Translations under genes and position numbers: made by a program | NCBI GenBank assembly: GCA_964016885.1 | Contig: OZ024742.1 | Coordinates: 55,676,001 to 55,740,000, forward strand | Direction of reading: 5' to 3' | Source of the DNA: Eledone cirrhosa | Lineage: Eukaryota | DNA length: 64,000 nt | Shown: piece by piece, positions 7,282-61,104 of the stretch | Layout of the letters: the number at the start of each line of letters is the position of its first letter | How positions within the stretch are numbered: position 1 is the stretch's first letter | The notes under the pieces: generated by a model | The model's input: only the letters and a program-made list of their open reading frames with translations | What the model was told of the DNA's origin: nothing | Databases searched by the model: none

Positions 7282-7620
7282 ATTACACAATAATCAAAGC
7301 TATGTTCAAATCCTTTTATTGCTGACAATCGTTTCTTACAAACTTTTCTTTGTACAATTCTCTTGTAATCTATGTGGCATCCATTCCACTCTGTAAATAC
7401 GAAACTGTTGTTGACAACATTAATATCCATGTATCTATATGATTGTTCAGTTGAATAGGTGGTTAATTATATGTACAAACATTGCTAGTGCTCCTATGAT
7501 CCAAACGAAAGTTTGGAGGAAACGATTGTCAGCAATAAATGATTTGAATATAGCTTTAATTATTGTGTAATTTATATTCCTGCTCTGTAAAACATCTGAT
7601 GTCTTTACATTGAGCTATTT
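7282..7620. mobile_element. Fold-back PLE end (arms about 7282-7346 and 7508-7571) with a degenerate hammerhead (7489-7534, +) and bulged hairpin (7582-7615, +)
   Basis: tgct-cctatga-tccaaac/gaaa/gtttgga-g-GAAA-cgattg-TC-agca-ATAAA, then GCTC-tgtaaa...tttaca-TT-GAGC. The left arm abuts (TA)n. Confidence 0.75.
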
Positions 7621-7829
7621 TTCTTACTGGTAATAAGGTAGTAATGAATTACTGACCTTTCCTGTTGTATATAGTGTATAACTATAAATAGTATTGTTAT
7701 TATTATATCTATATATGTATATATGTATATATATGTATATATATATATATATATATATATATATATATATATATATATATATATATATATATATATATAT
7801 ATAGATATACATCCTATTCCTCCTCCTGC

Positions 7830-8540
7830 TCATCATCATCATCATAATCATTTAACGTCTACGTTTCCACGCTTGCATGGCTTAAACGGATTGCCACGGT
7901 ATGTGACAAAAACCAACTTGCTCATACGGATCTGTATTTTACCTTGTTTTCTACAAATGGATACCTTGCGTAACACAAACCCTATTACAATTTGAACTAG
8001 ATGCTTTTTCTCGTGGAACCGAAATGACCACCTAAAGAGGGTTGACTGGTTGCTTTTTGTCGTGTCATCAAACAACCACCTTACAGTGGAATTGGAGGAT
8101 TTTGTCGTATTCCCAACTCGACCACGTAACAGTATGGCCTGGGTGATATTTGTTGTGAGAACATTAGATGTAGAGCATGTCAAGCATTCAAGTTTACATG
8201 CAGGAATTGGGCAAGCTTGGTGTATCAAAGGTGAGCGTTTGCAGGGGAAGACAGGTAAGTTCAACAAAGATGAGGTGCGTGGGATATTTAGCTGTTCAGG
8301 GCAGGGTTTAAAGCCTGAAGAGAGTAAATTAGGATAAACATTTTAAATCAATGTGACCTGTTTGAACTAAATGTAGGATGAGTTTGAGTTTTGAGTACCA
8401 CTTGTATCATAAACAACCACTACGGATAGAGATAATGGCTTGCGATTTAAAGTGAATCCAGGTTACGATATTTTGAAAGAGGTTGGAAAGCAGCATACCA
8501 GGTCCTCACAGACTTAAGATGGATTCACTTGGAAGTGAAA
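7830..8540 (-). mobile_element. Old LINE/SINE 3' remnant with (CAT)n end
   Basis: (CAT)n followed by tttaacgtctacgtttccacgcttgcatgg, plus decayed coding-like sequence; clade not assignable. Confidence 0.35.
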
Positions 8541-9570
8541 GTATTGATTTTCTAAAATAATAAAATAACTTTTTTATATACACATACGCATACACACAAA
8601 CACACACATATCTATATACATACGTACATACACATGTACTTATAAATACATACGTATATACGAAATTCAAAGAAATATTTTACCCACAGCTGGTCGCTTT
8701 TGTCCGTCTTCAGGCGTGTTTCTCTGATTTTCTAATGTTATTTCAGTTAGGCTTGTATAGCAACCAACACAATTTAGGTTCAAAATGGTTTTAGTACCAT
8801 TTTCACATATCTTCGATGGCTTCCGAGAACCGCGGTTGTAATTACGGCTATGACTACAAAAATCTGAACGCTGTTAATAACATGTACGCATATGTATATA
8901 CGTTTACGAATATTTTTCATTATTTCTAGCTTTGTAACATTACTTACGTATCTACTTAACCACTACAGTTCTACGCTATAGTGTGCTATATAAATATATC
9001 ACTAACACTTAAATGGCTTTTAGAATTATTGAGGGTCTCTTTAACATAATTATGGAATTTGCTTTTAGAATGAATTCGTGATACGTTAAAATTCACACAT
9101 TCTATGCATGATCACATACTCCAACACGTCGTTCACTGATTTGCAGGACATTGATAGAGATGGAAGCAGGCAATTATGCACAGCCTAGTATTGTGGGAAC
9201 CAACTCACGGGGGATGCAGGTGAAGAAGACCTGATCGAACGTTCAACGGTCAGGTTACAGACGATACAAACCCCAGGAGAGAGCAGTTGCCAGAAGCAAT
9301 GGAATATCATCAACTTTGGAGAGACTTTTAAAATAACATGTTCATGCTAATCTATATTTACAATGGCACTTGAATTTACTTATCAAAGTTAGTGTTGACA
9401 TATATCTTCATTTTTCTAAAGAACGTGTATATATATTCATATATATATATATATATATATATATATATATATATATATATATATATATATATATATATAT
9501 ATATATATATAGAGAGAGAGAGAGAGAGAGAGAGAGAGAGAGAGAGAGAGAGAGAGAGAGAGAGAGAGAG

Positions 9571-57517: not shown

Positions 57518-60145
57518 ACGTAACATATATTACGCAACCCCCAACTAGAATTACCCCTCCTTGACTATAACTCCCCCCCCCAAGCCATAACCCAAACAGA
57601 TAGGTAGCCTATAGGTGGAACAGTCCCCCATCGGGCTACAGCTTTGGGAGAATAGATTTTGGGACATGAGACGGTGTAGAGTAAATAGAATGCCATACTC
57701 TCATCTAGCTTACACCACTGCTGGATGGCATTTTATCTTAGCCCTCATCTTAAGTTGCGCTGCACGTCCGCCCCGTAATACTGCAAGCACCCCTGCGGCT
57801 CATTCACTTATTTATTTCTCTATGGATCCCCATAAATACGCCTATGTGGGTGCATGTCATCGAATATAGGTGTGTACATGTGTGTGGGCCTACGTGTGTG
57901 TGCGTTGGTCTGTCGAGGAACAAGGAGGCGCATGTATGTGCGTATATGTGTGCACTGGCCAGTACCGCGGCATGATCACATTCTGTGGATCCAATGTCAT
58001 ATGCCTTATATCTTGTGGGTAAACCTCTATCGCTATATTAACCCCTCAGGTTCCGTATATCTTAAATCTCGCTCACCCCCACGTGTCTGTGTATATGCAT
58101 GCGTGTCGTGGGGTAGTGATCTATATGTCTGGGTGTAGGTGAATGAGGGCTCGTGTGTGTGTGTGTGTGCGTGACTACATGTGTGTGTGCATGTGTGTGT
58201 ACACGCATGCATATGGGGGAACATCTACCCATGTGCTAGTGCACCCCAACCTCTGGTGCCTGTGTGTGTGTATGCATGCGTACATATATGGGTGTGTATG
58301 AGCGTGTGTATGTCTGCGCGCATAGCCATATATAACAATACACCCCAGCCTCTATCATCTTTGCGTGTGTATGCGTGTGCGTGTTTGTGTGCATGAATAT
58401 ATACATATATGAGTGTTTGAGTATGTGTGTCGCTGTCCATGTGTACACTTGAACAGATGCGGGAACGTATGCGGGTGTGCATTCATATACTAGTTCACCC
58501 CAACCTCCACCATAAAAGCAGGGCTTCTTCCTCCCTATTCCCTATTGCCTTTCTTGTATGATACAGGTGAACATCCACTCATGTAATAACACACTATATA
58601 TTATATATTATTTATTTCGCTATGTGTCGAATATAAGAGAAGAATGCGGTTGACGGAATATTGATGACCAAAACATAACACTCCAAGGTCATGGCAAAAC
58701 ACAGTGACTGGTAAACACGACCAAAACATCACAACATGCACATCGGAACAACAGAGATCTAGGAATATCAGATATAATATCAATAAGGGCATCAATTGAA
58801 TTTCTTTCGCGTTGAAATACATATAAATATGTGTCTGTGTGTATCGGACACACTACACACGAAGAAACTGGTGACCTAAATGTACCTGTCATGCCTGACC
58901 GAATTCCCAGGAGAATTTTCGGTCAGTTGCTATCTTGACCGCTTGCCCTCACAGTTACTACGTAGCAGTTCTTGCACGTAACTGCTAGATCCGGATGAAA
59001 CGAAGAAGAAGAATTTCCTAGCGTACCGTTATTTACCACAGATGCGATTTCACTTTGCCTCGTTAATGTTCAATCAACACCAAAGTTCTACGTTCTGGGC
59101 AATAGATTTGAATCCAACCACCGACAACATAGTTAGATGACCGATAATCAAACCAAACCGGAGTACTCTGATCCTTGTGATTTGAGAAATACAACCACTG
59201 ATATTGTAACGAAGACCAGAAAACCATACTCCATAATATTGAACCTAGTGACTGATTTATGCGACCAAAATGACACTACACACATATTGGGTCAGCAACG
59301 AACTAGGAATATTGGATGCTCCATCAATGACCGGGTAAGCACAAATAGAATTCTCTTTGCATTGAAATATACGAACTTGTGGATCTGTTGTGAGGTCGGA
59401 CACAAACACACACGACCGCACAGATGAGCGATGGACTATGCCCTATGCGTTGGACTTGCAAGTGCATTGAATGATGTGTAACTCTAGTATACATATTATT
59501 TATTATTAAGATGTATAAACTTGACACACTTATTATCATCTTATATTCTCTCAACTAATGATTATATTTCCCTCTCCCGTTATCTCCCCCCATATTTATA
59601 ATACTTTTATTTAACAAAATCTGTTTTTTTTACATTGTGTTTTTCCCTCTCTGATACTTGCTTATATTTTTTATATATTCTCTATATATTTTTTATATAT
59701 TTTTTTGATTTTTTATTTTTATTTTTATTTTCATTTTTATGCTCCTTATATTTTATTTTATTCTTACTTTTATATCTTATTATAGTGAAATCTTCCCTAA
59801 GCCTTATTATACATTATTAACTATAGATCATTATTATTCTTATTCCATTTCTAATTACCTCATGTACTTTCTCCTCCGTTATATATATTTTATATGCCCT
59901 TTGTGTGTGTGTAGCCTCTGCACACCCTCTGGACCCTACTATCAATGCCACCCCATCTATGGCTCCACTAACCACTCGAATCCCGGGAATGAATATGACC
60001 ACAGCTAGTAAACAATGACCCACACCCCACCCTCCCGCACCAAAATTAGACTTATTGTCCCCCTGCTTTTGCTCTTTACTCTCTTTACTCTTTGTTCTTG
60101 GATGTTTGGTTGGTAGAGTCCATAACACCAATCAAACCCCTTTTA

Positions 60146-60270
60146 TAACTCTGAAGAATCCTACGGTTACGTAAGGAAGAAACATTGTATGCCAATAAAG
60201 AATTTTTTGATGTTGTAGACGCTCTCCTGTACTTTATCATATATACGGCTCTGCTACAAAGCATTGAGCT
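60146..60270 (+). ncRNA. Hammerhead (60146-60194), AATAAA and bulged hairpin (60247-60270)
   Basis: CTGAAGA...GAAA-cattg-TA with weakened stem I; AATAAA at 60194-60199; gGCTC-tgct-acaa-agca-TT-GAGCt. Confidence 0.8.
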
Positions 60271-61104
60271 AATTATTATACTGCCAATACTTTAAGGGGA
60301 CACGGGTATACAATACCTAACTCCAATTAACCTAAGTATATATATATATATATATATATATATATATATATGTATATATATATATATATAAAAGGCTGCA
60401 GAGAGACCAGATTAATATATATATATATATATGTATATATATATATATACATGGGTGTGGGGTGTGGGGGGTTAAGTTCCATGACAATATAATACAGGTG
60501 AGACTCATAAATCAAAAATTTAATAACCTGTATTTTACTGTCATATTTTGCTTGTTTGTATATGAATGATTACAACATCTATGCTCCTGAAAACATGTAG
60601 AACCGAGGACGGGCGCCCAGTATATATGTTGTGGCACGGCGCCCTCCTGCATTGAAACGTTCGTAGATTGAAATCTCGTTGAAAATCTTAACTTGGGGAT
60701 ACATGAGATAAATAGATTGGTATTGCAGGAAACATATAGATAAACATGGCGAAAATATATATATATTTCTCCCGCCGCGTGTGTGTGTGTATAAATATAT
60801 ATATATATATATATATATATATATGTGTGTGTGTGTGTGTGTGTGTGTATATATATATATATTTATATATATATATATTTAGAGAGTGAGAGAGATGAGA
60901 GAGAGAGAGAGAGAGAGAGAGAGAGAGAGAGAGAGAGAGAGAGAGAGAGAGAGGGGGGGGGGAGAGAAACCATAACAGAAACACAAACCAGCTATCACAA
61001 TTTTAATTTTGAAAATCATTAATACTGTGAAACTAATAAAATAAATAAATAAATTTACTTAAAAGACTCCAGTTGCATTATCAATTTATTTTCCTATATA
61101 TAGA

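Follow-up and report, generated by a model that had tools for sequence, protein, structure and literature searches.

Penelope-like elements at the locus

The window analyzed here is a 64,000-nucleotide stretch of the Eledone cirrhosa genome (assembly GCA_964016885.1, contig OZ024742.1, positions 55,676,001 to 55,740,000), a genome of 3.0 Gb with abundant (TA)n. It holds a series of inverted insertions that are head-to-head copies of Penelope-like elements (PLEs). A comparison of the window with itself recovered all inverted pairs named in a preliminary description of this DNA, and every one of them is arranged head-to-head with the element 3′ ends facing outward (Table 1). That description had noted that one arm of a pair stops just before a bulged hairpin and runs into (TA)n, while the partner arm carries an additional tail. 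The asymmetry and the one-sided tail are already known from PLEs; the new element is a duplicated hairpin that marks both ends. Families A to J and Q are labeled by window position (Table 1), while families K, M, N and P are further autonomous families obtained by protein search.

Copies of family E that read through the end of the insertion lead into an 849-amino-acid frame with a reverse transcriptase (RT) and a GIY-YIG domain (YRDD and IVY..YIG in locus L297). Intact frames of families E and N measure 844-850 amino acids (L309, L278). One open reading frame (ORF) combining RT with a C-terminal GIY-YIG endonuclease, as found here, defines endonuclease-positive PLEs. Further PLE features are the pseudo-long terminal repeats (pseudo-LTRs), which are direct or inverted and arranged in partial tandems, and an optional 3′ tail on one end. 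Our own pattern scan located hammerhead-like CTGANGA..GAAA cores in the pseudo-LTRs. In Pfam searches, GIY-YIG was matched on window fragments only below threshold (E 0.034) and no RT family was reported for the L297 frame; one homologue is annotated as ‘predicted GIY-YIG superfamily endonuclease’. An Rfam scan of the window listed no hammerhead at E <= 1, only repeat-driven miRNA matches.

The autonomous hairpin families E, M, N, P and F insert into (TA)n and carry motifs of the Hydra clade, to which they would belong on this basis. DKT, changed from DKG, and a CxCx5C linker are present in all 12 listed frames of these families, and RWR stands for the RWK-type motif in 8 of them. In all 12, at most one cysteine lies between IVY and YIG, and the CCHH cysteine pair inside GIY-YIG is absent. 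CxxC (10/12) and CxH (9/12) flank a conserved E and N; both are missing from the two family F frames, which are possibly cut short. Family K returned no frames in this motif scan. Conserved ..CAGT, often TGACAGT, abuts the ATG of the RT ORF in families E, K, M, N and P (L271-L290), and is possibly the splice acceptor of a 5′ UTR intron.

Family H (L444, L445) has DKG, a CX2-5CxxC linker and two cysteines inside GIY-YIG, and we therefore regard it as Neptune/Nematis-type, a designation that does not separate the two clades. It is young and abundant (L444-L471), with 150 matches at 93-100% amino-acid identity and many open frames of 775 amino acids. Its ATG lies about 30 nt past the long end, and an upstream frame precedes the RT ORF. 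Families B, G and J are built of tandem units of about 470, 495 and 614 nt, respectively, none with an ORF seen. No canonical hammerhead core was found by pattern scan in their window copies. These three families look like PLE-derived, non-coding tandem elements.

Fixed ends and a duplicated hairpin

The asymmetry was present at every coordinate named in the preliminary description. Short arms end at a TA-like spot 2-11 nt 5′ of a bulged RCTC..GAGY hairpin and continue as (TA)n, with end offsets of about -10 at 7284, -6 at 10619, -3 at 13124, -4 at 16115, -2 at 53261 and -11 at 10680. Partner arms contain the hairpin and a further 46-75 nt. The same asymmetry is found at 16204/16503, 17710/18032 and 29768/30443. 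These three pairs had been described as having no clear hairpin; for 17710/18032 the asymmetry stands, while other copies of family I hold a degenerate form of the hairpin. As to the comparison of 10680 with 18271, the two lie 7.6 kb apart, and since 10680 has its own interrupted partner at 10853-10965, they need not belong to one insertion. One hairpin family, G at 27202-28018, had been overlooked, and it has its second hairpin inside the window.

To describe the ends across the genome, we used the arm body alone as a tail-blind query for families E, C and B. The arm and pair samples in this study are the best 40 matches per search rather than random copies, and include the window's own copies. 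Among 113 distinct arms, 64 end within 7 nt before the hairpin (hairpin 1) and 44 at one long position, leaving five elsewhere (three at -13 or -16 and two inside the tail). The offsets are alignment ends and are blurred by a TA-like overlap of 2-7 nt. The ends are sharply bimodal, with 108/113 arms at one of two positions.

The two positions are also combined nonrandomly. In the tail-blind searches, 28/29 two-ended insertions pair one short with one long end (P = 5.6e-8 against independent choice, for which the expectation is at most one half), the lone exception being a short+short insertion with a non-TA junction. Tail-anchored searches gave 116 short+long and three long+long insertions. 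The short+long cases comprise 7 in family E, 12 in C, 15 in D, 14 in A, 15 in F and 16 in H, plus 17 in I, 5 in J and 15 in G counted by eye; all two-ended copies of family A (14/14) and, by eye, of family I (17/17) are of this type. The long+long cases are two of family C (L137, in which the flanks are duplicated too, and L149) and one of family J (L372). For these counts, internal read-through arms were skipped and outer ends taken (L091, L107), two loci with one outer end unseen were dropped (L100, L298), overlapping loci were merged, and the window E pair and L045/L046 were added as pairs.

Several observations concern the ends of individual families. In family A (L184-L210), what comes after a long end is often not plain (TA)n but (ATT)n or a brief repeat of the tail's last part; telomerase-like, reiterative copying or an ATT target might account for this. 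At 16531-16604, between TA-rich stretches, a family A tail stands on its own, lacking its pseudo-LTR. Copies of family E with the ORF (L291-L310) mostly end at hairpin 1 (16 short, 1 long), and ORF-bearing copies of families M and P, in small samples, mostly at hairpin 2.

An asymmetry of this kind could in principle arise after insertion, from two tailed arms of which one lost its tail through a later deletion running from an internal TATA to the flanking (TA)n. The 2-7 nt TA-like overlap at short junctions speaks for this. Independent decay, however, predicts long+long and short+short pairs, and family B, which is young and has copies 100% identical to the query, already shows 14/14 two-ended copies as short+long. 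In this family, 13 short ends lie at a weak TA site beside the hairpin and only four at a longer ATATAT about 15 nt upstream; few ends fall at other ATAT/TATA sites of the body and tail. Because short+long pairing is already complete in the youngest family and stronger nearby TA sites are less used, we consider later deletion the least credible of the explanations. Three DNA runs of one sample at a family C insertion contained neither a join cleanly skipping the insertion nor a spanning piece, and are uninformative for the empty site. Target-site duplications are unreadable inside (TA)n.

Read-through copies show what lies beyond the long end. In family E, 6 of 29 tail-bearing loci continue past it, and about 10 nt further on they enter a second GCTC-stem-loop-bulge-GAGC hairpin followed by the ORF. 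Such a hairpin 2 lies 0-11 nt beyond the long end in nine families (E, K, M, N, P, F, B, D and G), including read-through copies of family B (L091, L100, L107) and family D (L175); for family K, the short end is the one sampled. The order of the element is a pseudo-LTR with a hammerhead-like core, hairpin 1, 55-106 nt, hairpin 2, and then the ORF or the next tandem unit. Both hairpins take the form RCTC-stem-loop-2-nt bulge-GAGY; in window DNA that has been shuffled, about 0.0006 of 13-nt windows are expected to hold this motif. Genomic ends lie just 5′ of hairpin 1 in the short arm, or just 5′ of hairpin 2 in the long arm, which thereby includes the ‘tail’. Three copies from families K, M, N and P have one hairpin that is either mutated or escapes the pattern. 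Within 10-kb loci of families E, K, M, N and P, every genomic end seen falls into one of two ranges, -8..-2 relative to hairpin 1 and -11..0 relative to hairpin 2. All seven two-ended inserts in these loci are short+long; three have the tail on the ORF copy and four on the inverted copy.

Since read-through copies run past the long end into hairpin 2 and then into the ORF or the next unit, the long end is internal too. This changes one part of the model in the preliminary description, in which the short arm starts internally and the long arm at or near the RNA 3′ end. Each family does have a single fixed long-end position, a processed RNA ending shortly past hairpin 2 would still fit, and families Q, H and J have no second RCTC hairpin after the long end. 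Against this stand the nine families with read-through into hairpin 2, and an RNA that stopped at the long end would leave the conserved hairpin beyond it without a function. A start at the RNA 3′ end is thus very improbable.

The hairpins are maintained while their surroundings are not. Between families, the stretch between the two hairpins has an identity of 0.34-0.58, at or near the shuffled means (0.34-0.50), while the stems keep their pairing although the letters differ; most hairpins have G-C as the outer pair, and hairpin 1 of families C, D and F has A-T. MAFFT alignments of the hairpins lost the stem register, and these compensatory changes were read without a formal pair count. In single-sequence folding the hairpins are not unusually stable relative to shuffles (z-scores -1.7 to +1.4), and the case for them therefore rests on conservation and position.

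Both properties extend to distant relatives. A metagenome scan yielded 77 loci of relatives at 33-43% amino-acid identity, 46 of them with 120 nt or more of sequence ahead of the ORF start, and 33 of these 46 carry two or more hairpins between the hammerhead-like core and the ORF. The motif occurs 78 times in 15,520 nt of upstream sequence, compared with 8 times in 54,913 nt of ORF body and 12 times on the opposite strand. Hairpin spacing is 55-83 nt, the first inner pair of hairpin 2 is C-G in 31/32, and in three loci (L544, L545, L576) both hairpins have switched together to TCTC/GAGA. Of 22 second pseudo-LTR copies on these contigs, nine end 0-4 nt before a hairpin with the flank visible (six at hairpin 1 and three at hairpin 2, mostly followed by TA-type repeats), three are on contigs that stop at such a place, one reads through, and four are on contigs that stop elsewhere. 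Shared descent links these loci, and some are near-duplicates, so that they do not count as independent trials.

Other repeats in the window lie outside these families. A short fold-back repeat at 28345-28510, which we take to be SINE-like, has (TA)n on one arm and a longer partner arm. A further short repeat family has two related hammerhead-like cores, at 6224-6277 and 13295-13351, and a third related copy lies at 29076-29258. A broken LINE-like element on the minus strand (18472-22419) has AP endonuclease-like and RT-like frames, as judged from translated motifs. The hairpin pattern was not shown by the inverted pairs 38734/40600, 46300/46724 and 61161/61933.

Table 1. Coordinates of PLE-related features in the window
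Feature	Label position	Coordinates	Strand	Details
Family Q arm	6347	6347..6545	-	hairpin 1 (conserved) at 6423-6449; lacks a complete hairpin 2; inverted partner not seen
Family A head-to-head insertion	7284	7284..7690		short end 7284 (minus); long arm 7502-7690 (plus); hairpin 1 at 7582-7615
Family B head-to-head insertion	9899	9820..10619		minus-strand long arm; hairpin 1 at 9866-9892; short end ~10619; tandem units, non-coding as far as seen
Family F short arm	10680/18271	10680..10965		ends 10680 (minus); interrupted partner arm 10853-10965
Family C head-to-head insertion	12710	12634..13124		hairpin 1 at 12682-12706 (minus); short end 13124
Family D head-to-head insertion	15821	15738..16115		hairpin 1 at 15795-15819 (minus); short end ~16115
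Family H PLE end, Neptune/Nematis-type	16204	16142..16503		asymmetric; neither end with complete RCTC hairpin
Family I head-to-head insertion	17710	17582..18032		in other copies, degenerate hairpin 4 nt past short end
Family F long arm	10680/18271	18146..18372	+	hairpin 1 at 18287-18307
Family G tandem/head-to-head insertion	27783	27202..28018		hairpin 1 at 27746-27771 and 27253-27278, hairpin 2 at 27666-27685, all minus
Family J	29768	29732..30443		614-nt tandem unit; 36-nt tail; asymmetric without RCTC hairpin
Family E, rearranged remnant of autonomous Hydra-type PLE (assigned by motifs)	53261	53261..60337		short end 53261 (minus); long end 60337 (plus)
Family E ORF, broken C-terminal part		56350..57628	+	linker, GIY-YIG endonuclease
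Hammerhead-like core, family E pseudo-LTR		60151..60183	+	CTGANGA..GAAA by pattern scan; mirror copy 53315-53347 (minus)
Family E hairpin 1		60248..60269	+	

Possible origin of the two arms

We consider it probable that head-to-head PLE insertions arise by two RTs, one per hairpin of the same RNA, priming from nicks in opposite strands of (TA)n. The hairpin would be an RNA signal read by the PLE protein, and two RTs would each bind one hairpin of a single RNA. The endonuclease would nick both (TA)n strands, and each target 3′ end would be placed where a short run of AU immediately precedes a hairpin. The trailing cDNA, started at hairpin 2, would displace the leading cDNA or stop at it, and the two cDNA 3′ ends would then be joined centrally through 0-8 nt of microhomology or a few added bases. 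The non-coding tandem families, keeping both hairpins, would be moved in trans. From genomic sequence we infer that the protein binds, that the folded strand is RNA and not DNA, that a strand is displaced and that the cDNAs are joined in this way.

Two parts of the earlier model are retained in this proposal. Two priming events on opposite (TA)n strands, and an internal start just 5′ of a hairpin at a TA-like spot, are supported by the sharp bimodal ends, the one-of-each pairing and the finding that either arm can be the longer. Its other event, near the RNA 3′ end, is replaced by a second start that also looks internal. Pairing of a TA primer at the junctions would be plausible from the 2-7 nt overlap.

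We mapped the arm extents of 103 short+long insertions on sense references. The long arm reaches further 5′ in 36 and the short arm in 23, while the two are equal in 30 and could not be resolved in 14. In L008, for example, the short arm spans 1046 nt and the long arm 288 nt, and in L174 a 175-nt short arm is fused directly to hairpin 1 and the tail with zero overlap, as would be expected of a trailing RT that runs into the leading primer. At the centre joints, 49/89 resolved cases overlap by at least 2 nt, compared with 17% in an exact-match null; we treat this microhomology as weak evidence because the overlap and null measures are not identical.

A different origin of the second arm would be a single priming event followed by self-primed fold-back or template switch, or the use of an asymmetric dimer of two RNAs. 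Some centre joints are palindromic, 9/89 resolved ones having overlaps of 11-36 nt, which is consistent with fold-back, and self-priming has been proposed (PMC3846280). In 6/6 families the arms within one insertion are more alike than arms across insertions, which fits one source and also gene conversion. However, a cDNA started at hairpin 1 would lack the tail, and one started at hairpin 2 could not supply a short arm with additional 5′ sequence, yet the short arm is the longer in the 23 insertions noted above. Since either arm can be longer, single-cDNA fold-back fails for cases such as L008. With two free RNAs, short+short and long+long pairs should form as well, but these are rare; an asymmetric dimer of two RNAs would still fit. 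We regard this group of explanations as quite unlikely.

Alternatively, the hairpins could act in DNA, with the GIY-YIG endonuclease recognizing them in a single-stranded or cruciform intermediate and cutting just upstream, such that the ends are resolution cuts. The ends are precise and TA-rich, the tail has been ascribed to endonuclease-mediated resolution (PMC8557442), and the Penelope endonuclease required the tail to recognize plasmid DNA (PMC11167929). In vitro, however, the Poseidon RT starts at both tail boundaries (PMC11167929). G-T pairs occur within the sense-strand stems, although the pattern is blind to the opposite case, and DNA cutting by itself leaves a longer arm of either type unexplained. 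This alternative is unlikely, if a more serious candidate than the others. Taken together, the sharp ends, the one-of-each pairs, the longer arm of either type and the likeness of arms within an insertion favor twin priming on one RNA.

Several observations weigh against twin priming from a hairpin pair. Family Q was picked as a prospective test after the model had been formed. Its hairpin 1 is conserved, yet just 1/22 listed arms (20 loci) ends before it, in a search whose query had a one-mismatch bias against short arms. Most family Q arms end at +103, three read-through copies hold only the 5′ half of a hairpin (a TCTCC half-site), and no inverted partner was found within 700 nt of 14 long arms. 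Families H and J show a one-sided tail without an RCTC hairpin, and so this hairpin is not needed for asymmetry in general. For families A, C and I, hairpin 2 was not seen and read-through copies were not found. Twelve 10-kb upstream stretches contained no read-through copies of A or C (ORFs of F and H were found), and a gapped pattern search for those of C, with 0 matches, was uninformative. L290 (62% amino-acid identity) lacks both hairpins by pattern, and in several hairpins the outer stem is predicted to pair weakly (0.11-0.6). Among the metagenome relatives, 13/46 loci have one (nine) or zero (four) hairpins, and 5/22 second pseudo-LTR copies end away from hairpins. Finally, the evidence is genomic and does not directly distinguish RNA from single-stranded DNA, or one RNA from two.

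Both ends of family J (L372-L400) follow TCATAT, and about 20 nt later there is a similar CTCYGCWGC word, which is a candidate for a different duplicated signal.

We tentatively extend the proposal to the Hydra clade as a whole, where a clade-wide duplicated RNA hairpin (NCUC-stem-loop-U(U/C/A) bulge-GAGN) may dock two RT subunits on one RNA. Programmed twin priming would then explain both the tail and the head-to-head form, and the non-coding tandems would travel by the same pair of hairpins.

Relation to known systems

In LINE-1 twin priming, reportedly described by Ostertag and Kazazian in 2001, two target ends prime on one RNA, giving an inversion joined centrally. The priming sites there are the poly(A) and an internal match that arises by chance, and the arms show hardly any overlap. 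In the elements studied here, by contrast, both starts are fixed and marked by hairpins, the arms usually overlap, and the outcome is routine.

A twin-hairpin or twin-priming model for PLEs was not found in the open-licence literature. A motif of 20-30 nt that is present twice, marks both ends and is kept across RTs of 33-43% identity suggests exact mutations to test. The duplicated hairpin is also useful for calling PLE boundaries and for assigning non-autonomous partners. Should the starts of RT be defined by it, it would offer a compact means of directing RNA-templated insertion.

The pattern in the preliminary description and half of its model were already published (PMC8557442, PMC3846280, PMC11167929). 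A tail of 30-40 bp is often found on only one end of inverted PLE insertions, the inverted repeats and one-sided tail of PLEs, a sister group of telomerase RTs, are an open mechanistic question, and mechanistic work on PLE insertion has been called for (PMC8557442). The tail has likewise been described as optional on one inverted pseudo-LTR (PMC3846280). The elements studied here resemble these inverted pseudo-LTR units in having head-to-head 5′-truncated copies, partial tandems, a hammerhead-like core, a tail on one end and (TA)n targets (PMC8557442, PMC3846280). Tails in the hairpin families are longer than the published 30-40, at 55-120 nt (family J, 36). Moreover, the one-of-each pairing is quantified here, and the duplicated end hairpin is undescribed in the available portions of those papers.

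Hydra-clade PLEs share with the families assigned to them here, by motifs, RWR (RWK-like), DKT, CxCx5C without CCHH, CxxC and CxH around E and N, a hammerhead-like core and (TA)n insertion (PMC8557442). Units of family E, at about 5 kb, are larger than is general for the clade (<3 kb), and a cis-acting hairpin is undescribed for it in the available portion of that source. The non-coding tandem units of families B, G and J resemble non-LTR retrozymes (bioRxiv 10.64898/2026.07.22.740005), although hammerheads are unconfirmed in B and G. The words ‘hairpin’, ‘stem’ and ‘tail’ are absent from the available portion of that preprint.

The closest biochemical comparison is with the Poseidon protein of Anolis carolinensis, which in vitro nicks and extends both strands, with two internal RT starts that bound the tail, and which is predicted to be a dimer (PMC11167929). 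That study mapped the two starts without a shared signal or a link to inversion and, in its available portion, offers no model for inverted arms. By eye, its template has UCUC/GAGA bracketing 6 nt, 8 nt past the start region (+111 to +118), which resembles the motif. The likeness to the present families thus covers two internal RT starts bounding the tail, nicking and extension of both strands, an AT-rich target and a predicted dimer. In Poseidon the start lies inside an AC-rich stem loop that is non-homologous to the target (PMC11167929), whereas the ends described here lie outside the ORF, just 5′ of a duplicated hairpin, with a TA-like overlap.

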